From an uncultured Candidatus Saccharibacteria bacterium (lineage in GTDB: Bacteria > Patescibacteriota > Minisyncoccia > Phycocordibacterales > UBA9973), in assembly GCA_964591445.1 (NCBI GenBank), contig CAZQAW010000001.1, forward strand, positions 14,625 to 78,624: 64,000 nucleotides of DNA, in the 5' to 3' direction. Below the pieces are notes generated by a model that did no database searches, was not told where the DNA came from, and worked only from the letters and a program-made list of their open reading frames with translations. Shown piece after piece: positions 3,338 through 59,732 of the stretch. The position numbers were made by a program, and so were the translations under genes. Numbering within the stretch: position 1 is the first letter of the stretch; every line of letters starts with the position of its first letter.

Positions 3338-3751
3338 CTAGCGACCAAATAATATCACACGTACTAATCCAAAAAGTTGGTCATTATCAAGATCTTTGGT
3401 TTTTTCTACAGACACAGCAAGAACATCAAGAGAGATGTGTTTTGTGCTTATGACAAGCCCGTATATTTCACAAAAAATTTGAAGCCATAGAACTGCCATT
3501 CGCTTATTCCCATCCACAAACGGGTGATCTTTTATAATGAGACAGAAAAATGCTGCCGCTTGTTTTTCTAAAGTAGGAAATCGAGAAAAGCCAAAATAGT
3601 TTGCGTATACTGTTTTAACTATCACGTCTATTTTATCGGCGTGCTCATCTTGCAACTCAAAAAATACTTCCCCTCTTTGCAGAAGAAGATTATAAGCTTC
3701 GCACAATATTTTTGAGGCTGGCTGGAGTGATTGTTTTTTCTCCTCGGTCAT
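3338..3751 (-). CDS. doc: Doc (death-on-curing) / Fic-family toxin.
   Basis: Contains HPFVDGNKRMA, matching the Doc motif HxFx(D/N)(A/G)NKR. The protein is 137 aa and helix-rich, a size typical of Doc. Confidence 0.75.
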   Translation of the reverse strand: MTEEKKQSLQPASKILCEAYNLLLQRGEVFFELQDEHADKIDVIVKTVYANYFGFSRFPTLEKQAAAFFCLIIKDHPFVDGNKRMAVLWLQIFCEIYGLVISTKHISLDVLAVSVEKTKDLDNDQLFGLVRVILFGR

Positions 3752-8513: not shown

Positions 8514-11429
8514 TTACACCGCTACAATGTTAACAAGTCTTCCCTTCACGTAGACTATTTTGACGATCTTTTTGCCGTCAGTCCATTTTTTGATCATTTC
8601 GTTTTCCTGCGCTTTCGATTTGATGATTTCTTCGTCCATGTCTACCGGTATAATGAGTTCCGCACGAACTTTGCCATTTACCTGAAGCGCAATAGTGACT
8701 TCGTCGTCAACGATTTTCGATTCGTCATACTGTGGCCACGTTGAGAGATGGATAGAAGCCGTCTCGCCAAGCTCGTGCCACAGTTCTTCGGCAATGTGCG
8801 GCGCGAATGGAGAAAGGAGTTTGCAGAAAGTAAGGAGATCTTGTTTTGCAATTCCTTCTTCTTTTTCCCATAGGTTGAGTAGAATCATCATTTGGGAAAT
8901 GCAGGTGTTGAATTTATACTCGGCAATATCTTCTGATATTTTTTTGATTGCTTTGTGAAGCGCTTTGCTTGCAGTATCGCTTGTTGTTTTTCCTGCGTCA
9001 TTATTTTTTTCTACAAGCCTCCACACTCGCTCCAAGAATTTTCGCACGCCCACAACTCCATTCGGGTCCCAAGGATAATTTCCTCCGTCTCCATACGGAC
9101 CCATGAATGCCAAATACAATCGCACAGTGTCAGCACCCAAAAGCTGAACCACTTGGTCGGGGTCAATGACGTTACCTTTGGATTTACTCATTTTGTTTCC
9201 GTCCGGGCCAAGAATAAGTCCGCGATTGCGGCGCGCAAGATACGGCTCGGTTTCTTCCACCATGCCAGCATCGTGCATCGCCTTCACCCAAAAGCGTGAA
9301 TAGAGCAAGTGCATCGTTGTGTGTTCTGCTCCACCGAAATACATATTGATCGGCATCCAAGCTTTGCGAGATGCTTTGCTTGCAAATTCATTTTCATTTT
9401 TCGGGTCAAGATATCGATAGAAATACCACGAAGAGTCGACAAATGTGTCCATCGTTTCAACTTCCGGTGTCCAGCCTTCCCCAAAAATATCTGTCACTCG
9501 CTTTTTCAATTCAGCACTGCGAGCAAGCGGCGCAGTTCCGTCTGGAGTATGGTCAACATCTGTTGGCAAAAGCCACGGCAAATGTTCGTTCGGAACTGCA
9601 TGCGCTTTGCCCGCTGGGTCGTACACAATAGGAATCGGCACACCCCAATAACGCTGACGAGAAATTCCCCAGTCGCGCAAACGATAAGTGTTCACCATTT
9701 TTCCACCGACGTGTTCTGTGATTTTCTTTTTCGCTTCTTCAGACGGAAGGCCAGTGAATGTAGCGGAGTCTTCCAGTATTCCACAATCAGTTAAGCACGT
9801 AGTTTTAAATTTTTTCGCATCGCTTGTGGTGTCGTAGCCGAGTTCGATCGCACGAGCTACTGATTCATCCAAAAATCTAATGTAATGTTTCAATCCATCT
9901 TCGTCGTTGTGAGTTTCCCAATATGTTTTTATTTCTTCAGCCGTCTTCCAGCCAAGAGTAAATTTTTCGTGCGCTTCAAGTTTAGTTGGTTTTGTCTGGG
10001 CGCTGTTAAGAATGATCAAAAAGCATTCGGCTCGGGCCGAGCGATTTACCTGTTTAAGTGTATTAAAATAATGCGCATAACTTGATTCGATCCATTCGAC
10101 ATATTTGAAATCATACAACCCACTTTCTTCTGCAACTTCACGCAGAACTCCTTTTTCGACAGATTCTCCATCATCAACCCCGCCCGCAAACAAAAGTATT
10201 TTTCCGTTTTCAAATTCACTCACCGCATATTTCTGAGTTGCTGGATCAAAAATAATTCCAGCACCGCCATTTCGAAATTCTTCGTTTTCTCTCTTCTGTC
10301 CAGTTTCTCGAGCAATCACTTTTTTTATCGGCAAATTATATTTCTTCGCAAATTCAAAATCACGTTCATCGTGCGCTGGCACTGCCATTACCGCACCTGT
10401 TCCGTAATTTACTAACACATAATCTGCAACCCATACTGGCACTTCTTCGCCATTTGCAGGATTAATTGCTTTTATACCCTGGAGCTCTACTCCTGTTTTT
10501 TCTTTTGATTGCTGGCGGTCAAGGTCGGACTTCTTTTTCGACAGAGAAATGTATTTTTCAACTTCATTCCAATTTGAAATACTTTCTTTAAGTTTTGACA
10601 CAAGAGTATGCTCAGGAGACAACACAACATACGTAACACCAAACAATGTGTCAGCACGAGTAGTGAAAACCCGAATACTCTCCCTCTCCTGGCTAGGAGA
10701 GGGCTGGGGTGAGGTTGTAATTTTAAATTCAATCTCGCTTCCTTCGCTTCTGCCAATCCAATTCTTCTGCGCTTCTTTGATATGCTCCGGCCAATCCAAA
10801 GTATCCAAGTCGTCGATCAATCTGTCTGCGTATTTTGTAATGCGGAACATCCACTGGTCTTGATCTTTCTGTATCACTTCAGCACCACAGCGTTCGCAGC
10901 AGCCGTTTGTCACTTGCTCGTTTGCAAGCACCGTTTTGTCTTTCGGACACCAGTTCACTTGCGTTGTTGCGCGATACACCAAATCTTTTTTCAAAAATTT
11001 TGCGAACATCCACTGCGTCCATTTGTAGTAAGATGGATCGCACGTCACCACTTCTCGCGACCAATCAAACGAAGTTCCGATCGAGTAAAATTGCTCGCGC
11101 ATTTTATCCATGTGCGAGTATGTCCACACTTTCGGGTCTTGGCCAAGTTTGATAGCCGCGTTTTCAGCCGGAAGTCCAAAGGCGTCGAAGCCCATCGGGT
11201 AGAGTACATTAAAACCTTTCATTCGTTTGTAGCGCGCATACATGTCTGGAATAGCAAAAGCGTACCAGTGCCCGACGTGCAAATTCCCGGAAGGATAAGC
11301 AAATTCAACCAAAGTATAGAAATTCTCTTTGCCGGTAACGCTATCTTCTACACGGTATACGCCCTGTTCCCGCCAAGCATCCTGCCATTTCTTTTCGATA
11401 TCTTTATGGTTATATTCGCGCTTTTTCAT
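8514..11429 (-). CDS. leuS: Leucyl-tRNA synthetase carrying two insertions: a palindromic-element peptide and a Nudix-box domain.
   Basis: HVGH (HIGH motif), the CP1 editing domain TTRADTLFGVTYVV...AHDERDFEFA, VNTYRLRDWGISRQRYWG, and KMSKSKGN. The protein is 971 aa, longer than the ~860 aa typical of bacterial LeuRS. Confidence 0.95.
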   Translation of the reverse strand: MKKREYNHKDIEKKWQDAWREQGVYRVEDSVTGKENFYTLVEFAYPSGNLHVGHWYAFAIPDMYARYKRMKGFNVLYPMGFDAFGLPAENAAIKLGQDPKVWTYSHMDKMREQFYSIGTSFDWSREVVTCDPSYYKWTQWMFAKFLKKDLVYRATTQVNWCPKDKTVLANEQVTNGCCERCGAEVIQKDQDQWMFRITKYADRLIDDLDTLDWPEHIKEAQKNWIGRSEGSEIEFKITTSPQPSPSQERESIRVFTTRADTLFGVTYVVLSPEHTLVSKLKESISNWNEVEKYISLSKKKSDLDRQQSKEKTGVELQGIKAINPANGEEVPVWVADYVLVNYGTGAVMAVPAHDERDFEFAKKYNLPIKKVIARETGQKRENEEFRNGGAGIIFDPATQKYAVSEFENGKILLFAGGVDDGESVEKGVLREVAEESGLYDFKYVEWIESSYAHYFNTLKQVNRSARAECFLIILNSAQTKPTKLEAHEKFTLGWKTAEEIKTYWETHNDEDGLKHYIRFLDESVARAIELGYDTTSDAKKFKTTCLTDCGILEDSATFTGLPSEEAKKKITEHVGGKMVNTYRLRDWGISRQRYWGVPIPIVYDPAGKAHAVPNEHLPWLLPTDVDHTPDGTAPLARSAELKKRVTDIFGEGWTPEVETMDTFVDSSWYFYRYLDPKNENEFASKASRKAWMPINMYFGGAEHTTMHLLYSRFWVKAMHDAGMVEETEPYLARRNRGLILGPDGNKMSKSKGNVIDPDQVVQLLGADTVRLYLAFMGPYGDGGNYPWDPNGVVGVRKFLERVWRLVEKNNDAGKTTSDTASKALHKAIKKISEDIAEYKFNTCISQMMILLNLWEKEEGIAKQDLLTFCKLLSPFAPHIAEELWHELGETASIHLSTWPQYDESKIVDDEVTIALQVNGKVRAELIIPVDMDEEIIKSKAQENEMIKKWTDGKKIVKIVYVKGRLVNIVAV
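10676..10717. repeat. Copy A of the in-frame palindromic element (actct-ccctctcc-tggcta-ggagaggg-ctggggtgaggttg) inside leuS.
   Basis: Identical 36-nt core to the copies at 31229-31264 and 33731-33766. It forms an 8-bp perfect hairpin ccctctcc/ggagaggg. In the leuS frame it reads [13 protein letters not shown]. Confidence 0.85.
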
Positions 11430-12514: not shown

Positions 12515-12570
12515 ATGAACTGCTAATACTTATATAGTATACTAAACGTATAAGTTTACAAATTTGTGAT

Positions 12571-13167
12571 ATGACACCCAAACCGAAACAACCATTCAAA
12601 AAGCGCGAGCTTACAGACATCGAGAAAATGTCGATGGCGCTTACTCGTTGGGTCGGCTCGACAAAGTCGCTCGTTGCGCATACTGTATTTTTCGCTGTCA
12701 TGATACTCCTTGCCATTTCCGGTGTCGGTTTTGACAAAGTGCTTCTCATCCTCACAACGGTCGTTTCGCTTGAAGCAATTTATCTTTCCATTTTTATCCA
12801 AATGTCTGTGAACCGCCAAGCTCGCCGACTGCGTGAAGTGTCGCAAGATATCGAAGAGATTCAAGAAGACGTTGAGGAAATCCAAGAAGATGTCGAAGAA
12901 ATTGCCGAGGATGTGGAAGGCATTGAAAAAGATATCGATGAAATCCAAGAAAATGTGGACGAGATTCAGGAGGACGTGGAAGACATTACCGAAGATGTCG
13001 AGGATATTACCGAAGACGTAGACATGTATGAAAAAGAAGAGAAAGTCCGCGATGAAGCGATGATGAACAACATTCAGAACACGCTCGCGGAACTGATGCG
13101 AGAAATTCAAGAATTGAAAGAAAGCAAAGCAAGCAAAACTGTCGTGAAGAAAAAATTGGAAAAATAA
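12571..13167 (+). CDS. DUF1003-like small membrane protein with an acidic heptad-repeat tail.
   Basis: LTRWVGSTKSLVAHTVFFAVMILL and the following TM match the DUF1003 pattern. The C-terminus is about 8.5 tandem heptads, EDVEEIQ/EDVEDIT. Confidence 0.6.
   Translation: MTPKPKQPFKKRELTDIEKMSMALTRWVGSTKSLVAHTVFFAVMILLAISGVGFDKVLLILTTVVSLEAIYLSIFIQMSVNRQARRLREVSQDIEEIQEDVEEIQEDVEEIAEDVEGIEKDIDEIQENVDEIQEDVEDITEDVEDITEDVDMYEKEEKVRDEAMMNNIQNTLAELMREIQELKESKASKTVVKKKLEK
12850..13029 (+). repeat. Tandem 21-nt coding repeat, about 8.5 units (gatgtcgaagaaattcaagaa-like).
   Basis: Direct tandem repeats visible in the nucleotide sequence, encoding (D/E)(V/I)(E/D)EI(Q/A/T)E heptads. Confidence 0.7.
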
Positions 13168-13225
13168 AAGGCCCACAACAATTTGAATGTGTAGACCGTT
13201 TTATCGCGCTTCATCTTTAAGTTGG

Positions 13226-18659: not shown

Positions 18660-18752
18660 AAATACTACTTTAAAAAGCACGACATAAAATCCTGCTGGAT
18701 TTTTGCTCTGCTCGGCTCGACAGCCTGCGCAAGGCTTTTCAAAGTAGTATTT

Positions 18753-21435: not shown

Positions 21436-23670
21436 CTATTCTAAAATTTTCTTCAAGACGTCTTCTGGAACTTCCTTGATTTTTGTCTCATTTTCGGCTT
21501 TATGCACAGATTCTTCTTCGATCTTCTTTTGTTCTTCTTCTTTTGACGGTTCTGTTTGAAGCGGCACTTCAACTTGTACAGGAGAGGGTTCTTCTTTCTT
21601 TTGCTCAGTTTTTGCAGCCATATACGAAGCTGGAGCGATATTTGGTTTGCCCGCCATCGCTTTTGCAATGACATCTTTCAAAAGCGAGATGCTTTCTCTA
21701 CTGCCGGCTTTTTTGGTGGCGACACGCTCTGGCGGATTGCTTTCTCTTCGCAAGTCTTCAAGTGGCATTTCTTTTTTTTGTTCTTGTATTTCCGGACGAG
21801 GAGTGACGGATTTCACATCTTCCAATTTCGGCTTATGAAAAACTTCTTTTTCTTTTTTTACCAAAATAACTTCCGGCTGTTTTTCAGGAACTTTTTTCGG
21901 AGTTGGTTCAAAATCTGCTGCCGCGGGCAACACATCGGCAAGTGCATCATTTAATGCGGACTTGATTGTATCCGGATCAATCGAAGCTCGCACCGGCCGT
22001 TCGACAGGTTGTGGAATTGGGCGAGGCGCGGGTTGAGGCTGAGCTGGTGTTTGTTGCGTTGGTTGTGGTACTTGCGGTTGCGGCATCGGTTTTGAAGGCA
22101 CTGGCGCAATTTCTCCAGATTTTATCTTTGCCAAATCTTCTTTGCAGTAGACCGGCCGGCCTGGAGTTGGCTCGAACGGCAACCAAATTTCTTTGCCACA
22201 CACGGCACAGTTTGCCTTAAACTTCCCTTCTTTATCTTTTTCGCTTATTTCATCTGGTGGTGGAACTTCTCCGGGCGCAAGCACAACACCGCCTTTGGCA
22301 CTGCTCCATGCATTGATCGTTTCTTCAATCTCTGTTCGCGGCATTGTGTAGAGTTCGCGAGAACGATCGACGATTTGCTGAATACTTACCAAGTTCCCTG
22401 GGAATTTGAGTGGTGGAATAGTGCCGGCAGAAAATGGTCGTGATGTGAATCCATCTACCATGAGTTTCAAATATACATTGTAGTTTGGAAGCGCGACTAA
22501 ATCTTCTGGAGTAATTTCTGGTGCGAATTCTTGTTCCAGGAATTCCGCGTCTTGTGCGCCAACGCGGAAAACGATCATCGTTCCAACGTTGCCGAACACA
22601 GCGTCGCGAACCGCAGTTCCGTTCGCAGTGACAAGCTGGTTGGTATATTGGTGCGCAATGATCAAGTTCAAACGGTATTTTCGCGCTTCAGAAAGAATCG
22701 AAGCAAAAGATTCTGTCACGAAGTTTTGAAATTCGTCCACGTACAAATAAAAGTCTTTTCGTTCTTCTTCGGGCACGCGCACGCGCTCCATCGCCGCAAG
22801 CTGGATTTTGGTAATAAGCATTCCTCCCAAAAGCGCAGAGTTGTCTTCACCGATGCGTCCTTTTGAAACGTTCACCAAGAAAATTTTCCCTGTGTTCATC
22901 ACATCAAACACGTTGATCGTGGACTTTGATTGCCCAACCACGTTTCGCACGATCGCACTTGAAAGAAATTGCCCGACTTTGTTTTGGATCGGGGCGATTG
23001 CTTCGTTTCGAAATTGGTCTCGCCACTGTTCGTATTCGTGCACCCAAAAAGCTTTCACCACAGGGTCTTTCAAATTCCCGATGATTGTTTTTCGATAATC
23101 TTTATCTACAAGTAGTCGCGGAATGCCAAGCAATGTTGTGCCCGGCGTATCAAGCAAAGCAAGAATCGCATTGTTCAAAATGTATTCCATTCGAGCGCTC
23201 CACGCATTGGCCCAAATCTTTGTGAAAATTCCCATCAAACCTGACGCAACCAGATGCTTGTATTGTGGATCTTCGAGTTCGAGCACGTTGAACCCAACAT
23301 GAAAATCCGTATCGGCGGGGTTGAAATAAATGACGTCGTTCAAGCGATGCTCGGGAATTGAAGCGAGAATTCCTTCCACCAGTTCTCCGTGCGGGTCAAC
23401 AACACACACACCTTCGCCATTGTTGATGTTCTGAATGATCATATTGGAAAGCAGAACAGACTTTCCTGTTCCAGATTTTCCAAGCACGTACATATGTTGG
23501 CGGCGGTCGCGGCGCTTAATACCAAAAAGCTGATTGCTTCCGCGGAAATTCGTGCGGCCGAAATATGTAATGTCTCTATTGTGTGGTAGTTCGTTTAAGT
23601 CCATTGCGTTATTCTTGCTATAAGTATAACGTGATTTACCGCGCTTTGCTAGATGTGATCCGTCGTTCAA
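21436..23670 (-). CDS. VirD4/TraG-like type IV secretion coupling-protein family ATPase with a C-terminal zinc-ribbon and a Pro/Gln-rich tail.
   Basis: Walker A at YVLGKSGTGKSVLL and Walker B at LYVDEFQNF. The TraG/TraD-like core gives ...IAHQYTNQL...IVFRVG. There is a CAVCGKE...VYCKED Cys4 module, then PQPQVPQPTQQTPAQPQPAPRP and a K/E-rich acidic tail. Confidence 0.75.
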   Translation of the reverse strand: MNDGSHLAKRGKSRYTYSKNNAMDLNELPHNRDITYFGRTNFRGSNQLFGIKRRDRRQHMYVLGKSGTGKSVLLSNMIIQNINNGEGVCVVDPHGELVEGILASIPEHRLNDVIYFNPADTDFHVGFNVLELEDPQYKHLVASGLMGIFTKIWANAWSARMEYILNNAILALLDTPGTTLLGIPRLLVDKDYRKTIIGNLKDPVVKAFWVHEYEQWRDQFRNEAIAPIQNKVGQFLSSAIVRNVVGQSKSTINVFDVMNTGKIFLVNVSKGRIGEDNSALLGGMLITKIQLAAMERVRVPEEERKDFYLYVDEFQNFVTESFASILSEARKYRLNLIIAHQYTNQLVTANGTAVRDAVFGNVGTMIVFRVGAQDAEFLEQEFAPEITPEDLVALPNYNVYLKLMVDGFTSRPFSAGTIPPLKFPGNLVSIQQIVDRSRELYTMPRTEIEETINAWSSAKGGVVLAPGEVPPPDEISEKDKEGKFKANCAVCGKEIWLPFEPTPGRPVYCKEDLAKIKSGEIAPVPSKPMPQPQVPQPTQQTPAQPQPAPRPIPQPVERPVRASIDPDTIKSALNDALADVLPAAADFEPTPKKVPEKQPEVILVKKEKEVFHKPKLEDVKSVTPRPEIQEQKKEMPLEDLRRESNPPERVATKKAGSRESISLLKDVIAKAMAGKPNIAPASYMAAKTEQKKEEPSPVQVEVPLQTEPSKEEEQKKIEEESVHKAENETKIKEVPEDVLKKILE

Positions 23671-27687: not shown

Positions 27688-27829
27688 ATTATAACCTATA
27701 ACAACAAATAGCGCGAAAGAAATGTGAATAGTCTTTGAGAAAAGCCTTGCGCAGGCTGTCGAGCCGAGCAGAGCAAAAATCCAGCAGGATTTTATGTCGT
27801 GCTTTTATACAAGATATTTTATTCTTTTG

Positions 27830-29435: not shown

Positions 29436-32144
29436 TTATTTCTTCTTCAAAACTTTCTTCAAATATTGCCCGGTGTAAGACTTTGGTGTATTTGCAACTT
29501 CTTCCGGAGTTCCTTTGGCTACCAAATGTCCGCCGCCGATACCGCCTTCGGGCCCAAAGTCGAGAATATAGTCTGCGCATTTTATGAGATCCATGTTGTG
29601 CTCGATAACGACGACTGTATTCCCTTTGTCGACAAGACGGTTCAACACACCGATCAAATTTGCAACGTCATCATAGTGCAACCCGACAGTTGGTTCGTCG
29701 AGCAAGTAAATGGTTTTTTCAATATGAGGTCGATATAGTTCAGAAGAAATTTTCACACGCTGCGCTTCCCCGCCAGAAAGTGTCGTTGCGCTTTGGCCGA
29801 GCTTCACGTATCCAAGCCCGACATCCATGAGAGTTTTCAAGCGGTCATAAATAGCAGGAATATCTTCGTAGAATTTCAAACCTTCTTCAACGGTAAGCTG
29901 AAGAATTTCGTAAATATTCTTTTTCTTGTATTTTACTTTCAAAGTTTCTTTGTCGAAACGCTTGCCACCACACACGTCACACGTCACATACACTGTCGGC
30001 AAGAAATGCATTTCTACAGCGATTTCTCCATTTCCTTCACACGCTTCGCAGCGGCCACCTTTGACGTTGAATGAAAATCGGTTTGATTTCCAACCGCGGA
30101 TTCGTGATTCTTCGCTTTCAGCAAACAAGTCGCGGATAAATGTAAACGCGCCTGTGTATGTCGCAATGTTTGACCGCGGCGTTCGTCCGATCGGAGATTG
30201 GTCAATCAAAATCGCTCGAGACAAATATTCGGTACCAGTAAATGTTGCTGCATTAAAGACCTTTGCGCTACGATATTTGCGTTCAAAACGCGCTTGCAAA
30301 TTTTGGTGTACGATTTCATACATAAAAGAAGATTTGCCGGAACCAGACACACCAGTAATGCACACCAACTTTCCGAGAGGAATTTCAGCATTCACATTTT
30401 TGATATTGAAAGCATGTCCGCCGACAACCTTGAGCGAACCTTTGTCAGAGGTGCGGCGTTTTTCTGGAATAGGAATTCGCACTTCTTCGCGCAAGTACGC
30501 AAGGGTGCGAGATTTTGATGTGTTTGTTTTTGCGGCAAGCAATTTTTCTAAATCATCTTGCACTATCACTTCCCCGCCATGCACGCCGGCTTTCGGGCCG
30601 ATGTCTACCAGATAATCTGACGCGTAAATCGTATCTTCATCGTGTTCAACAACGATAATCGTATTTCCCAAATCTCGCAAATCTTCAAGCGTTTTGATCA
30701 AGCGTTCGTTATCGCGCTGATGCAAACCGATCGTCGGTTCGTCAAGCACGTACATTGCGCCGACGAGGCGTGAGCCGAGTTGTGATGCCAGACGGATACG
30801 CTGCGCTTCTCCGCCAGACAAAGTATTTGCCCGGCGTTCAAGCGCCAGATATTCCAAGCCGACGTTCAACATAAATTGCAATCGGTCTTCAATTTCACGG
30901 ATCACCGGTTTTGAAATTTCTTTTTCTTTTGCAGTCAGTTTAAGCTCGATGAAAAAGTCCGCCGCGTCTTGGATTGAAAGCGCAGTCAAATCTACAATGT
31001 TTGTTTTTTTAGTACCAAGAAACACATTGAGTGCTTCGATACGCAGACGCTTGCCGCCACAAACGTCGCAAGGTTCTGTACCCATAAAATATTTGCTTCC
31101 GAGCCCATTACATTCTGGACAAGCTCCGTACGGCGAGTTGAAAGAGAAAAGTCGCGGCTCAACTTCTGGGAAAGAAAAGCCGTCATTCGGACAAGAGAAT
31201 TTTGCAGAAAGAAGAAACTCTGAACTCTCCCTCTCCTGGCTAGGAGAGGGCTGGGGTGAGGTTGATCCAAATTGTATCGTCACCAAACCTTCACTTTCCA
31301 AAAGTGCGCGTTCGATAGACTCAGCTAAACGCATGCGCGCGTCGGCCGGGTTATCTGCAAATTCATGAAGCGCAAATTCGTCCACCATCACGTCGATATT
31401 GTGCTGCTTTGTTTTTGAAAGTTCGATACGGTCACGCAGATTTTTTATAGTCCCATCAAGTCGAACTTTGCTGTAGCCTTTGCCAAGCAAGTCGTACAAA
31501 AGCTGGTAGTACTCGCCTTTTCGTCCGCGAACCACCGGCGAATAGATCGTAATCGGTGTTTCGCTCCACTGCACTCCCATCACTTTTTTTGAGCCTTTGG
31601 TATTTTTTTTATACGTTTCAACTTTCTCGAGCATGAAATTCAAAATTTCTTCGTTCGAAAGTTTTTTGATTTCTTCGCCGCACTGTGGACAATGTGGCCG
31701 GCCGATACGCGCGTACAGCACGCGCAAATAGTCATAAATTTCGGTAATCGTTGCCACAGTTGAACGCGGGTTGTTCGAGCGAGATTTTTGGTCGATAGAA
31801 ATTGCCGGGGAAAGCCCGGAAATTTCATCAACTTCCGGCTTGCTCATTTGCTTCAAGAATTGTCGCGCATACGAAGAAAGAGATTCAACGTATCGTCGCT
31901 GGCCTTCAGCAAAAATAGTGTCGAACGCCAAAGAAGACTTTCCTGAACCGGAAAGCCCTGTGATCGCGATCATCTTGTTGCGCGGCATCTCAACATTAAT
32001 ATTCTTCAAGTTGTGTGTTCGAGCGCCTTTGACGATAATTTTTCCTTCACTGTCTTTTTTCATATATAAGCCAAGCGCACCCGGCAAGTCTCCTTGAGGG
32101 TGTCTATCTCTCTTTAACTTCTTTAAGTATACCACATATGCCAT
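29436..32144 (-). CDS. uvrA: Excinuclease ABC subunit A, carrying the 13-aa palindromic-element insert.
   Basis: Two ABC ATPase modules: [15 protein letters not shown] / [12 protein letters not shown] / [11 protein letters not shown], and [13 protein letters not shown] / [11 protein letters not shown] / [11 protein letters not shown]. Zinc-finger Cys pairs are present. Confidence 0.95.
31224..31264. repeat. Copy B of the in-frame palindromic element, inside uvrA.
   Basis: actctccctctcctggctaggagagggctggggtgaggttg is identical to copy A over 41 nt. In-frame it reads [13 protein letters not shown]. Confidence 0.85.
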
Positions 32145-32939: not shown

Positions 32940-35099
32940 TTATTTTTCCGGTTCCAACTTTGCGCGTAAAACACTAATCTCGTCGCGAACAATCGCGGCC
33001 GTTTCAAAGTCGAGCTCTTTGACGGCTCTCGACATTTCTTTTTCTTTTATTTTGATGATTTTTTCGTAGACTGCCAAGTTGCGCTCTTCGTCAGAAAGTC
33101 TTGCAAGTTTTTTCTCTTCTTTTTTATCGAGCGCTTTGCGAGCTTTGCCAAGCACTTCAAAATCTATCGCAAGCTCAGCGTTCACCGCTTTTGCATGTTC
33201 AGATTCCATTTGTTCAGTAATGTCTTTGATATTTTTCTTGATCGTTTTCGGAGTAATGCTGTGCTTTTTGTTGTACTCCATTTGCACTGTTCGGCGGCGA
33301 TTTGTTTCGGCAATTGCACGTTCCATCGAGCCTGTCATGTTGTCTGCATACAAAATCACGCGACCCTGCGCGTTTCGAGCTGCGCGGCCGATAGTCTGGA
33401 TAAGCGATGTTTCGCTTCGAAGAAATCCTTCTTTGTCTGCGTCCAAAATGCCGATCAATTCTACTTCCGGCAAATCCAACCCTTCGCGGAGCAAGTTCAC
33501 TCCGACCAAACAATCAAATTCCCCTTTTCGAAATGCCGTCAAAATTTTAATTCGGTCAATTGTTTTAATATCGCTATGCAAATATTCTGATTTTATTTTT
33601 CGCTCTTTCAAATACGCAGCCAAATCTTCCGCCATTTTTTTCGTTAGCGTTGTTGCAAGCACGCGCCCGCCGCCCTTGATATTTGCAACCGCTTCTTCAA
33701 TAAAGTCTTGGACTTGGCCTGGGTAGTTCCCCCTCTCCTGGCTAGGAGAGGGCTGGGGTGAGGTTGATGCAGCCACCGGCTTGAGCGTAATTTCCGGATC
33801 AAGAAGTCCAGTTGGACGAATGATTTGTTCTACTATTTGGTCACTGTTTTCTCGTTCATAGTCGCTCGGAGTCGCTGAAGTATAAATCACTTGGCTTACG
33901 CGTTCTTCAAATTCGTTGTATTTAAGCGGGCGATTGTCTTTCGCGCTCGGCAAACGAAAACCGAATTCCACCAAAGTATTTTTACGAGCCTGGTCGCCAG
34001 CGTACATGCCGTGAAGCTGCGGAAGCGTCACATGCGATTCATCGATCACCACCAAAAAGTCCGCAGATCCATCTTTGTGATGTGGAAAATATGAAAGCAA
34101 TGTTTCTGGCGGCTCGCCTGCTTTTTTACCAGACAAATGTCGAGAATAGTTTTCGATTCCGCTGCAATAGCCGATTTCTTTGATCATCGCCAGGTCATAC
34201 GTCGTTCGTCGTTTGATTCGCTCCGCTTCCAAAAGCTTTCCTTCTTTTTCAAAAAGTTTGAGCTGGTCTGCAAGTTCTGCTTTGATCGCTTTTATTGCTT
34301 TTTCTTTTTTAGTTTCATTTGTCAAAAAGTGTTTTGCCGGAAAAAGGAAAATACTTTCTGGATTGTCGAGAATCTGCGAAGTCACCGGATCAATTTTTAA
34401 AATCTGCGTAATTTTTCCCGCTACGATTTCAATCGAAAGCATAAACGTTTCCGACACTGGCATGATTTCCACTTTATTACCAAGTGCACGAAACTGCCCT
34501 GAAGACAAATCTGCGTTTGTACGCGTAAAATGAATTGAAACTAAATTCGAAAGCAAATCATTGCGCGCCATTTTCATCCCAGGTTTTAATTCCAAATGTT
34601 CTTCGCGATATTCTTCTGGACTTCCCAAACCGTAAATACACGAAACCGACGCAACGATGATGACATCTTTTCTCGTAAGCAAAGATTGTGTTGACGCATG
34701 ACGAAGACGATCAATTTCTTTGTTGATCTGCGCGTCTTTTTCAATATACGTATCCGTCACCGGCATGTAAGCTTCCGGCTGGTAGTAGTCGTAATACGAA
34801 ACGAAATAATGCACCGCATGGTCTGGGAAAAATTCTCGATACTCTTGCGCAAGCTGTGCTGCAAGCGTTTTGTTGTGAGCAATCACCAAGGTTGGCTTTT
34901 CAAATTGCGCAATCACATTTGCAATAGTAAAAGTTTTACCAGTTCCCGTAGCACCAAGAAGGGTCTGCTTTTTCATCCCTTTTTTGAGGCCACTTACGAG
35001 GCCCTTGATAGCCTGAGGCTGGTCGCCATCCGGCTTATATTCGCTTGTAAGTTTGAAAAGCGGCATAGGTATCAGTACATTGTAAGCTATTTTGGGCAA
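32940..35099 (-). CDS. uvrB: Excinuclease ABC subunit B, carrying the palindromic-element insert.
   Basis: LLGATGTGKTFTIANVI (Walker A), VVIDESHVTLPQ (DEAH-like), the helicase C-terminal motifs, and the UVR domain at the C-terminus (ETAAIVRDEISVLRAKL). Confidence 0.95.
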   Translation of the reverse strand: MPKIAYNVLIPMPLFKLTSEYKPDGDQPQAIKGLVSGLKKGMKKQTLLGATGTGKTFTIANVIAQFEKPTLVIAHNKTLAAQLAQEYREFFPDHAVHYFVSYYDYYQPEAYMPVTDTYIEKDAQINKEIDRLRHASTQSLLTRKDVIIVASVSCIYGLGSPEEYREEHLELKPGMKMARNDLLSNLVSIHFTRTNADLSSGQFRALGNKVEIMPVSETFMLSIEIVAGKITQILKIDPVTSQILDNPESIFLFPAKHFLTNETKKEKAIKAIKAELADQLKLFEKEGKLLEAERIKRRTTYDLAMIKEIGYCSGIENYSRHLSGKKAGEPPETLLSYFPHHKDGSADFLVVIDESHVTLPQLHGMYAGDQARKNTLVEFGFRLPSAKDNRPLKYNEFEERVSQVIYTSATPSDYERENSDQIVEQIIRPTGLLDPEITLKPVAASTSPQPSPSQERGNYPGQVQDFIEEAVANIKGGGRVLATTLTKKMAEDLAAYLKERKIKSEYLHSDIKTIDRIKILTAFRKGEFDCLVGVNLLREGLDLPEVELIGILDADKEGFLRSETSLIQTIGRAARNAQGRVILYADNMTGSMERAIAETNRRRTVQMEYNKKHSITPKTIKKNIKDITEQMESEHAKAVNAELAIDFEVLGKARKALDKKEEKKLARLSDEERNLAVYEKIIKIKEKEMSRAVKELDFETAAIVRDEISVLRAKLEPEK
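33731..33766. repeat. Copy C of the in-frame palindromic element, inside uvrB.
   Basis: ccctctcctggctaggagagggctggggtgaggttg is identical to the 36-nt core. In-frame it reads [12 protein letters not shown]. Confidence 0.85.
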
Positions 35100-35635: not shown

Positions 35636-36862
35636 TCAAATACTGTATTTTTTAAAAAAGTTGGCTTTGTATTCCTCAAAATTCCCTTCTACAATGGCAT
35701 TTCTCATTCCTTTGACGAGGTGTACTATAAAATACAGGTTGTGAATAGTCGCAAGGGTTCCACCCAACATTTCCTTCGCCCTAAAAAGATGCGCGACGTA
35801 TGCGCGAGTGTAGTTTTTGCAAGTATAGCATCCGCAGTTTTCTTCGATCGGAACAAACGCTTCTTTGTGCTCCGCATTGAACATGTTTATTTTGCCGGCA
35901 TGAGTATACAAAGTGCCATTGCGAGCCATGCGAGTCGGAGCAACACAGTCAAAAAAGTCGACACCGTTTTCTACACCCATAAATAAATCTTCGGGCTCAC
36001 CAATACCGAGCAAATGGCGCGGTTTGTTTTCTGGCAAAATTTCGTTCACCCATTTGACCGCAGTCGACATATCTTCTTTTGCAAAACTTCCGCCAATACC
36101 GAAGCCGTCAAAATCCATACCGCCGATAAACTCTGCCGACTTTTTTCGTAAAGACTCTTCTCTGCCACCTTGGACTATGCCAAACAATGCTTGCTTGGTT
36201 TTTCTTGATTTATGGAAATCTAAAGACCGTTTTGCCCAAGCGTGCGTGCGATGAAGCGCTTCTTCTTGATATCGAAATGGTTCGGCTGGCGACGTACATT
36301 CGTCAAATGCAAAAATAATATCTGCACCCAAATTCTGCTGAATCTCGATCGATTTTTCTGGAGTAATGTAGTACAAAGTGCCATCAATATGCGAACGAAA
36401 CGAAACTCCGTCCGCGCCAATAGTCGCAAGTTTTGGAACACCTTCGTCTGCGCTTGATCTTTCTGTAATTTGTAAACTTGGATCAATAGCTTTCGTAATT
36501 TTTGAAATATCCTTGCCGTATGCCGCGCCAAGCGAAAACACTTGGAAGCCGCCAGAGTCTGTCATCATCGGGCCTTTCCAATTCATAAACGAGTGGAGTC
36601 CTCCGGCTTTTTGTACGACTTCGTCTCCAGGTTGTAAAAGCAAGTGGTATGTATTTGCAAGCATGACATCTGCGCCAAGCGACTCCAACATTTCGGGAGT
36701 AATAGCTTTGACAGTTGCTTTTGTGCCAACGGGAACGAATGCTGGAGTTGGAATATCTCCGTGCGGAGTGCGGAAGATACCGGCGCGCCCAAGCATGGGC
36801 GCGCCGGTAGTGTCTTCTAATTTCTTTTCAATATCAAAACGGAAGTGCATGTTATTGTTCAA
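35636..36862 (-). CDS. tgt: Queuine tRNA-ribosyltransferase (tRNA-guanine transglycosylase).
   Basis: FRTPHGDIPTPAFVPVGT, LGADVMLANTYHL and the C-terminal zinc site CGCYTCKNYTRAY...H. Confidence 0.9.
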   Translation of the reverse strand: MNNNMHFRFDIEKKLEDTTGAPMLGRAGIFRTPHGDIPTPAFVPVGTKATVKAITPEMLESLGADVMLANTYHLLLQPGDEVVQKAGGLHSFMNWKGPMMTDSGGFQVFSLGAAYGKDISKITKAIDPSLQITERSSADEGVPKLATIGADGVSFRSHIDGTLYYITPEKSIEIQQNLGADIIFAFDECTSPAEPFRYQEEALHRTHAWAKRSLDFHKSRKTKQALFGIVQGGREESLRKKSAEFIGGMDFDGFGIGGSFAKEDMSTAVKWVNEILPENKPRHLLGIGEPEDLFMGVENGVDFFDCVAPTRMARNGTLYTHAGKINMFNAEHKEAFVPIEENCGCYTCKNYTRAYVAHLFRAKEMLGGTLATIHNLYFIVHLVKGMRNAIVEGNFEEYKANFFKKYSI

Positions 36863-59274: not shown

Positions 59275-59296
59275 CCCCTCCTTGGGTAAGGAGGGG
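59275..59296. repeat. 22-nt CT-rich hairpin palindrome cccctcctt-gggt-aaggagggg (left flank of the DUF559 gene).
   Basis: Exact reverse complement of the 59711-59732 copy. Confidence 0.7.
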
Positions 59297-59306
59297 TCGA
59301 CGCGCT

Positions 59307-59693
59307 TCAGGCGCGCGGGGGTGGTAATTTCTGTAGTTCAACCTTTATCCGATCAACTACTGAGGAAAGTTGAGTGAGAATTTCTTTATTACTAAAACGC
59401 ACAACTCTTTTTCCTAAAGATTCAAAATAGACAGTTCGCTTAGTGTCATATTCTTCTGCATCTTTTTCATAATGCTGAGAACCATCAATTTCTATAATGA
59501 GAAATTTTTTAGGACAATAAAAATCTGCAATGTATCCTCCAATACTATGCTGCCTACGAAATTTTACCCCGAGTTTATTATTTTGCAATTGCAACCAAAG
59601 AACCGCTTCTTCATGCGTTCCATGATTTCTGAGTTCTCTTCTTCTATCAACAAATTGAGGAGTGTTGTGAATAATTGGCATACAAGTTACCAA
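59307..59693 (-). CDS. DUF559-family protein (Vsr-like/PD-(D/E)xK endonuclease fold).
   Basis: ...EEAVLWLQLQNNKLGVKFRRQHSIGGYIADFYCPKKFLIIEIDGSQH...KRTVYFESLGKRVVRFSNKEI matches the DUF559 pattern. The start is TTG at 59693, or an internal ATG at 59681. Confidence 0.7.
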   Translation of the reverse strand: MVTCMPIIHNTPQFVDRRRELRNHGTHEEAVLWLQLQNNKLGVKFRRQHSIGGYIADFYCPKKFLIIEIDGSQHYEKDAEEYDTKRTVYFESLGKRVVRFSNKEILTQLSSVVDRIKVELQKLPPPRA

Positions 59694-59710
59694 CCCCAGC
59701 GCAAGCGCTG

Positions 59711-59732
59711 CCCCTCCTTACCCAAGGAGGGG
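59711..59732. repeat. 22-nt CT-rich hairpin palindrome cccctcctt-accc-aaggagggg (right flank of the DUF559 gene).
   Basis: Reverse complement of 59275-59296. Preceded by the GC palindrome cagcgcaagcgctg at 59697-59710. Confidence 0.7.

Follow-up and report, generated by a model that had tools for sequence, protein, structure and literature searches.

A 64,000-nucleotide (nt) stretch of the genome of an uncultured Patescibacteria bacterium (hereafter the window) carries, within the gene uvrA, a 41-nt block that its sequence pattern identifies as a low-GC variant of the BoxC repeat, a motif also named PIT (potential intrastrand triplex) and TMECO (Holder et al. 2015, PMC4666352). We judge it likely that this block is one solo member of a dispersed repeat of that family, selfish or neutral, which its host gene tolerates as a translated, disordered surface loop. 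The family itself is known; what is new is its in-frame setting in essential genes, its Patescibacteria host and a variant capped by a T.A:T triad. A preliminary description of the window had presented the block as a palindromic element inserted in frame into a UvrA loop and shared with leuS; it had missed a third copy in uvrB, the triplex-motif nature of the element and the independent refilling of the UvrA loop hotspot.

We searched the window for the 41-mer, allowing up to three mismatches, and recovered three copies, in leuS, uvrA and uvrB, against none in 100 dinucleotide-preserving shuffles. The identity of the leuS and uvrA copies described earlier is exact, and 39 consecutive nt (13 codons; 31226-31264 in uvrA) are common to all three copies with a single T/C difference, beyond which the resemblance ends sharply at both edges. 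All three copies lie on the plus strand within long minus-strand open reading frames (ORFs), are read in the same frame and encode the same peptide, and the previously given reading of the uvrA block agrees with the translation of the uvrA ORF. G+C content is 63% in the block and about 42% in the window. Two to six flanking bases match across the three copies, as do the loops GGCT and CTG, which are free of pairing constraint, and only 'CA' precedes all three.

The full element is laid out as CCCTCTCCT-GGCT-AGGAGAGGG-CTG-GGGTGAGGT, with block lengths of 9/4/9/3/9. Its inverted repeat is limited to the 9+9 nt of CCCTCTCCT and AGGAGAGGG (DNA hairpin of -9.7 kcal/mol, z = -2.7 to -3.3), and it is for this part that the term palindromic holds; GGGTGAGGT mirrors the purine arm, and the element is thus a hairpin plus a third strand rather than a simple palindrome. 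Purine-motif triads are satisfied at all nine positions, with six G.G:C, two T.A:T and one A.A:T, so the 9-bp G+C-rich hairpin and the G-rich strand could fold back as a purine-motif intrastrand triplex. A finder for such motifs, which required a pyrimidine stem of 8 nt, a perfect hairpin and no more than one mismatch in the mirror third strand, returned exactly five in the window and none in 300 shuffles.

These features match the published TMECO pattern, CCCTCNCCC-N3-6-GGGNGAGGG-N3-GGGNGAGGG, which tolerates a single mismatched triplet (Holder et al. 2015, PMC4666352; the PIT/TMECO triplex motif goes back to Hoyne and Maher 2000, as cited there). The window element fits it at eight of nine positions per block, and its sole deviation is one coordinated end triplet, T/A/T for C/G/G, itself a legal T.A:T triad: whereas TMECO blocks end in C/G, the window element ends in this triad (CCCTCTCCT / AGGAGAGGG / GGGTGAGGT), and the 34-mer form of the capped variant is CCCTCTCCTGGCTAGGAGAGGGCTGGGGTGAGGT. 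TMECO forms a stable class II triplex in vitro; E. coli K-12 holds 23 copies, always intergenic, with no tie to mobile elements and no known function but an association with local genomic variability or instability (PMC4666352). The order of parts is that of BoxC/PIT/TMECO: a 9-nt C-rich arm, then two 9-nt G-rich arms, the second being the mirror arm, with a loop of 3-6 nt ahead of the first and one of 3 nt ahead of the second. Shared as well are dispersal in multiple copies, stems better conserved than the loops, the occurrence of inverted doublets, and differences in presence or absence between close strains. In contrast to TMECO, known from Proteobacteria, intergenic in K-12 and without an associated gene, the window element has a Patescibacteria host, and its three solo copies all lie in frame within essential genes; the same window also has a DUF559 gene with motifs on its flanks.

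A degenerate form of the pattern, searched in one genome per species, occurs at more than 120 loci among the matches listed, with conserved stems and variable loops and flanks, in Pseudomonadota, Chloroflexota, Planctomycetota, Bacteroidota, Cyanobacteriota/Melainabacteria, Verrucomicrobiota, Nitrospirota, Myxococcota and others; E. coli genomes that carry it do so at a median of 12 places each. The exact 33-mer had no match in one genome per species, indicating that this genome and its motif subtype are not among the GTDB representatives. Metagenomes scanned with the low-GC variant yielded at least 120 further loci, and the resulting motif-anchored set comprises 240 loci (1.58 Mb). Multi-copy dispersal is thus seen both as three copies in 64 kb and among these 240 loci of other organisms, where stems are kept and loops vary; the intergenic location typical of BoxC is not, all three solo copies lying in frame inside ORFs. 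Literature searches with the literal sequence strings matched no paper, searches for in-frame palindromic elements in Patescibacteria returned nothing relevant, and in the literature searched no paper reported an in-frame location of such motifs.

Could the copies have arisen independently, by local slippage or convergent selection for triplexes or hairpins, or be artefacts of assembly? The triplex rule constrains the stems, and stems like these turn up in unrelated phyla, as independent origin would allow. However, the unconstrained loops and flanking bases are equal in the three copies, and loops elsewhere agree within contigs (L138, L186, L201, L179) and vary between genomes; against an artefact, the genes run on normally on either side of each copy and four independent assemblies contain the uvrA copy. 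We regard this alternative as the least probable of those considered. The near-identity of the three copies, loops included, points instead to recent spread within the genome.

We next examined the uvrA site in an alignment of 120 Patescibacteria homologues and in structural models. The names attached to the nearest of these UvrA proteins place the host itself in the Patescibacteria, as a Paceibacteria-like member. The element encodes UvrA residues ~293-305. It is absent from the closest homologue (P0002, 90% identity, locus L121), relative to which the window protein has 13 extra residues, and from about 95 of the 120 homologues, which have a tight turn at this point (...GLVxIxI-x-E-E-EF-LMSSKF...). 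Solved UvrA chains (9gxk; 2r6f also matched) align over the site with a 12-residue gap precisely at the block, bearing out the earlier statement that canonical UvrA lacks it. Also as described, the insert sits just upstream of the zinc module, a few residues ahead of the conserved C-x-x-[CD]...C-P-x-C segment. The preliminary description had proposed an AlphaFold check of the loop and had named conservation among UvrA orthologues as evidence against an insertion. An AlphaFold2 model (51-sequence alignment, mean predicted local distance difference test score, pLDDT, of 75) places strands at 286-291 and 307-312 with coil between them and pLDDT below 50 at 295-305, and so models the block as a disordered turn between two beta-strands before the zinc-module cysteines. 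Among orthologues the block recurs only in three further assemblies, strain variants with 99.6% identity in UvrA, one of them truncated and the other two full-length.

The same turn bears unrelated inserts in about 25 of the 120 homologues and, on this alignment, is an insertion hotspot. One homologue, P0118 (locus L123), bears a member of the element family in this UvrA loop, with the orientation unchanged but in another frame (TPHPNPLLSKERG, from ACACCTCACCCCAACCCTCTCCTTAGTAAGGAGAGGGGG), which reads as an independent insertion. The loop inserts of P0100, P0010 and P0107 were considered as triplex motifs and rejected, being longer, lower in G+C and without a recognisable motif. The window UvrA is also missing the insertion domain, ~100 residues long, of the canonical protein (chain residue 319 is followed by 421 in the PDB alignment), and CPND replaces the usual C-x-x-C directly after the insert. 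Its start is probably the Met 27 codons downstream of the beginning of the longest ORF (MKKDSEGK...): homologues begin at MKK, and the first 27 codons are modelled with pLDDT below 50.

The other two window copies occupy comparable positions. In leuS the element occupies the turn that joins EFKI to IRVFTTR, where the editing domain is entered; the window protein has 14 residues there and its relatives two to six. The uvrB copy lies between LKPVAA and GNYPGQVQDF; net gains over the nearest relative are 13 codons in uvrA and 11 in uvrB. Separately, a NUDIX hydrolase domain is inserted into LeuS behind the editing domain, at residues 406-500, an insert common to some Patescibacteria LeuS homologues, others having an alpha/beta-hydrolase insert near the same region.

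Comparison with close strains revealed fast turnover at these sites. Two JGI contigs (L329 and L330, ~95-96% nt identity to the window) carry an identical uvrA copy, and at the uvrB codon they have a different in-frame insert of 117 nt (L329 8623-8738; L330 7020-7135) made up of an inverted pair of long-loop triplex motifs (GEFSSPFKGEVAASGRRRGDTPLRPSTATPPLKGGEKN; fold of -67 kcal/mol). The site is empty in the syntenic next relative, L121, so that one uvrB codon exists in three states: a solo motif in the window, an inverted doublet in L329/L330 and nothing in L121. Conversely, L121 has an in-frame motif-like hairpin in uvrC at ~9070-9130 (CTCCCCCT-TGCCA-AGGGGGAG..., peptide FSPPAKGEW...) that the window uvrC does not. 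Together, the uvrB alleles and the uvrC motif indicate that sites are gained, lost or converted on a strain time scale. All three excision-repair genes are affected in this clade, uvrA and uvrB in the window and uvrC in L121; this clustering may be chance or may have a link with how excision repair recognises non-B DNA. A strain-level, in-frame insertion of 120 nt also distinguishes the TGT gene of L329 (6082-6310) from that of the window (36113-36221). It belongs to a different G+C-rich palindrome family (GGCGAGCGAGGAAAAA...TTTTTCCTCGCTCGCC, inner GGTCCTCGGA...GGCCAGACC), and the UvrA-loop insert of P0100 (L245) has inner termini similar to it; several families of in-frame palindromic elements thus seem to be present in these bacteria.

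In-frame insertions of this motif class are common in some uncultured bacteria. The low-GC metagenome loci are mostly intergenic or at ORF ends, and a subset lies deep in long ORFs, where Pfam matches place most copies within conserved domains: HolB, the DNA polymerase III delta' subunit (residue 91, domain 41-224), the CCA-adding enzyme (residue 85, domain 29-151), a thiamine pyrophosphate (TPP) enzyme (residue 93, domain 50-227), PPDK (residue 113, domain 17-351), MurG (residue 37, domain 16-162) and ValRS (residue 672, domain 575-736). In HsdR it falls between the ResIII and Helicase_C domains, and in KsgA at residue 233, right after the matched domain (8-230). These copies use every open frame and both orientations, indicating that it is the DNA and not the peptide that is conserved; on these grounds we dropped the idea of a selected peptide, the common frame and orientation of the window copies having a chance probability of about 1 in 9 (three of six frames are open).

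Short, G+C-rich, hairpin-forming sequences inside essential genes of an A+T-richer genome also bring to mind the byp elements of yeast mitochondria, to which the block has a superficial likeness. We therefore weighed whether the block might go untranslated, by ribosome bypassing as in T4 gene 60 and yeast mitochondrial byp or by removal from the mRNA. A stable local mRNA hairpin is computed at the site, which would suit such a mechanism, yet the three window copies and 11 verified cases elsewhere are all open in frame and a multiple of three nt long, properties for which neither bypass nor excision has any need. The flanking codons (GGA TCA ... TCA GAG in uvrA, ATT ACA ... ATT CGG in leuS, GCA TCA ... 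GGG AAC in uvrB) offer no take-off and landing pair, and a scan of the window against Rfam at gathering thresholds found three tRNAs and no RNA family at the element. We consider an untranslated block very unlikely. Since frame and length are conserved in every case and bypass signals and an RNA family are absent, we infer that the block is translated.

A further possibility is that the block is a functional module selected by the host: a flexible linker that adjusts UvrA-UvrB contacts, a DNA or RNA structure that pauses transcription or translation between domains, or a hotspot of recombination or instability in repair genes. Four assemblies of the species carry the insertion in fixed and identical form; of the three copies in the window, two are in nucleotide-excision-repair genes (uvrA and uvrB), as is the copy in the relative (uvrC), and for two of three a rough estimate by gene length gives p ~0.03; the mRNA at the uvrA site is able to form an 8-9-bp hairpin; and such motifs are tied to local genomic instability (Holder et al., PMC4666352). 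Yet the same DNA appears in three unrelated proteins and in many metagenome gene families, in several frames and both orientations, so that no peptide is conserved; the closest relatives function without the block, the loop is modelled as disordered, and near-identical strains carry unrelated alleles at the uvrB site. On balance we find a host-selected module improbable, albeit less so than bypass or independent origin.

We thus return to a tolerated copy of a dispersed repeat. The uvrA copy would have survived for two reasons: its length is a multiple of three and its frame, with the C-rich strand as mRNA, is free of stops, and it landed in a beta-hairpin turn that is permissive to insertions in many relatives. 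It would be expressed as a disordered, Ser/Pro-rich surface loop of 13 residues, for which no role in UvrA need be invoked. How such motifs move is a separate question, and for it the window offers a candidate, a gene of the DUF559 family flanked by the remaining two of the five motifs, inverted copies of a second subtype (Table 1).

Table 1. Coordinates of the repeat copies, the parts of the uvrA element, and the DUF559 gene with its flanking motifs in the window
Feature	Position	Strand	Details
Copy A, leuS	10677..10717	+	0 mismatches vs uvrA copy; ORF 8514-11429, minus strand
uvrA ORF	29436..32144	-	902 codons as longest ORF
Copy B, uvrA	31224..31264	+	41 nt, sequence ACTCTCCCTCTCCTGGCTAGGAGAGGGCTGGGGTGAGGTTG; 0 mismatches vs leuS copy
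Pyrimidine arm CCCTCTCCT, C-rich stem	31229..31237	+	Hairpin fold, motif finder
Loop 1, GGCT	31238..31241	+	Hairpin fold
Purine arm AGGAGAGGG	31242..31250	+	Hairpin fold
Loop 2, CTG	31251..31253	+	Read from sequence; fits N3 loop of TMECO pattern
Third-strand segment GGGTGAGGT, mirror of purine arm	31254..31262	+	Motif finder
Copy C, uvrB	33726..33766	+	3 mismatches, at 5' edge; ORF 32940-35099, minus strand
Triplex motif, second subtype, long loop 2	59275..59325	+	CCCCTCCTT-GGGT-AAGGAGGGG-21 nt-GGGGTGGTA
DUF559 gene	59307..59693	-	128 codons; Pfam DUF559, E = 1.5e-32
Inverted partner motif, other side of DUF559 gene	59688..59731	-	

The second-subtype motifs have long second loops that contain a hairpin, and the 3' end of the DUF559 gene (last codons LPPPRA*) is encoded by the third-strand segment of the left flanking motif. 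We found this gene-motif association in both directions in independent samples. Among the 240 motif-anchored loci, the DUF559 profile identified 12 genes, all but one from the low-GC metagenome set, and all 12 have motif-like hairpins within ~100 nt, usually on both sides; a 13th gene (L163) was found by tblastn only. Starting instead from the gene, 80 viral-contig DUF559 loci contain 22 motifs in the 59.9 kb that lie no more than 250 nt from it and 17 in the remaining 378.8 kb, an 8.2-fold higher density near the gene, and 11 of the 21 best-scoring viral-contig homologues are motif-flanked, often by inverted pairs. Such units can also enter genes: in L037 (2400-2880), a motif-DUF559-motif unit of ~140 residues is in frame in PriA, directly before the Walker A motif, and in L211 (4777-9257), where two TPR-SpoIIE phosphatase paralogues stand in tandem, a DUF559 unit is in frame in one, and a solo motif takes the identical place in its neighbour.

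The association extends to E. coli, where ycjD is a DUF559 gene and has beside it, in the fabI-ycjD spacer, the classic BoxC next to fabI (envM) (L124/L248, K-12 1351200-1351420). The stop codon of ycjD is inside a degenerate BoxC hairpin (...RRSPSP*), and the full BoxC lies ~200 nt from the 3' end of the gene. YcjD was predicted in earlier literature to be a Vsr-like PD-(D/E)xK nuclease. The DUF559 profile matches PDB 3HRL, an 'endonuclease-like protein', and, weakly, I-Bth0305I (E = 0.008), the prototype of the Vsr-like EDxHD homing endonucleases (PMC3239194). In the literature searched we found no paper linking DUF559 or ycjD to BoxC/PIT/TMECO. A Pfam scan of about 50 of the 59 window ORFs detected no transposase, RAYT, integrase or reverse transcriptase domain. 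The only two other window genes resembling mobile-element or toxin genes are a TrwB/VirD4-like type IV coupling protein (21436-23667) and a Fic-domain gene (3338-3748).

We propose tentatively, and with somewhat less than an even chance of being right, that BoxC/PIT motifs are non-autonomous partners of DUF559 (YcjD-like, Vsr-fold) genes in one widespread, hitherto unrecognised system of mobile or homing type that ranges from E. coli to Patescibacteria. A DUF559 nuclease acting in trans could drive the spread and turnover of the motifs in either of two ways. It might serve them as RAYT serves REP/REPIN sequences, or it might make homing-type cuts at motifs, with repair then copying another motif or a nuclease unit into the break. 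If so, solo motifs, inverted doublets and motif-nuclease-motif units would enter essential genes in frame and could take each other's place at one codon, which would account for a 30-year-old orphan repeat and assign a function to DUF559.

Several observations weigh against the repeat reading or against this extension of it. The view is limited to 64 kb of the genome, and translation of the block is deduced from its sequence. No convincing target-site duplication or shared target sequence emerged from three filled and two empty sites, and the TMECO triplex was undetectable in vivo in E. coli (Holder et al., PMC4666352). The in-frame metagenome cases were chosen by requiring a long spanning ORF and so say nothing about how often insertions break genes. 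The flanking motifs of the window DUF559 gene (stem CCCCTCCTT, long loop 2) differ in subtype from the uvrA, uvrB and leuS copies, and this gene may therefore not be their partner. In the genome-anchored sample only one of 120 loci has a DUF559 gene. BoxC on both sides of ycjD was considered and rejected, the other side holding an unrelated terminator hairpin, so that BoxC is one-sided there. Of 5,426 complete E. coli genomes, 3,378 have ycjD (absent from 38%) and 4,936 a BoxC-like sequence (absent from 9%), counts that are totals and not cross-tabulated per genome. Finally, the association of DUF559 genes with motifs could be explained by both accumulating in permissive regions.

Since the 1990s, BoxC/PIT/TMECO repeats have figured as abundant intergenic sequences to which no function, origin or mechanism of spread has been assigned. 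In small-genome Patescibacteria and other uncultured bacteria, this motif class invades conserved housekeeping proteins in frame. Such repeats feed protein length variation and the odd low-complexity inserts that hamper annotation and alignment in the Candidate Phyla Radiation (CPR), and non-B-DNA-forming sequences can evidently persist in essential genes, excision-repair genes included. The association with DUF559 supplies a concrete, testable enzyme candidate, for which E. coli YcjD and BoxC provide a tractable system.

The window holds two further kinds of repeat. A 66-nt stretch, AAAAGCACGACATAAAATCCTGCTGGATTTTTGCTCTGCTCGGCTCGACAGCCTGCGCAAGGCTTTTC, is identical at ~18675-18741 and 27739-27805, both intergenic, inverted and 9 kb apart; one copy lies within a hairpin with 29-nt arms, and there is no Rfam match. 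ORF 12556-13173, which has no Pfam match, includes at 12845-13037 at least six tandem repeats of 21 nt (seven codons), whose product is a periodic acidic segment rich in E and D.

We compared the element and its putative partner with other known systems. Criteria for MITEs do not describe it: target-site duplications are missing at the filled sites and by comparison with the empty ones, and the hairpin is internal, with no terminal repeats. With REP/REPIN-RAYT systems it shares short G+C-rich hairpin repeats, uniform within a genome and diverse between genomes, that occur singly or as inverted doublets, as well as a single-copy gene flanked by repeats, here DUF559. Unlike in those systems, the flanked gene encodes a predicted Vsr-like PD-(D/E)xK nuclease rather than an HUH Y1 transposase, and whereas REPs are extragenic, the window motifs are also intragenic and in frame. 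Pfam found no Y1_Tnp (RAYT) domain in the window ORFs scanned, and the GTAG/CGTC tetranucleotide of REPs is absent from the palindrome end (...ACTCTC / GGTTG...), the nearest sequence being CTAG in loop 1.

Another parallel is offered by the Rickettsia palindromic elements (RPEs; Ogata et al. 2000, as cited in PMC3184786). As the cited account presents them, RPEs are palindromic selfish repeats that sit in frame in housekeeping protein genes of reduced-genome hosts and are tolerated as extra surface segments, which is how we picture the uvrA copy. By the same account they are about 105-146 bp long, confined to Rickettsia and without a triplex third strand, whereas the window element spans 34-41 nt, resides in Patescibacteria and belongs to a cross-phylum family. 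Its size and host thus set it apart from RPEs, a distinction drawn from their description and not from RPE consensus sequences.

The DUF559 units, as distinct from the solo copies, were compared with homing endonuclease genes and inteins. In contrast to inteins and introns, the Pfam output shows no splicing domains around DUF559, so that an inserted unit would stay in the protein. The similarity to I-Bth0305I in PDB is weak, at the E value given above. As in the Vsr-like EDxHD homing endonucleases typified by I-Bth0305I (PMC3239194), the DUF559 fold is Vsr-like and has an E-x-D-G-x-x-H motif, and, as with homing endonuclease genes and inteins, motif-DUF559-motif units lie in frame in PriA and in a TPR-SpoIIE protein and one site is reused by different alleles.

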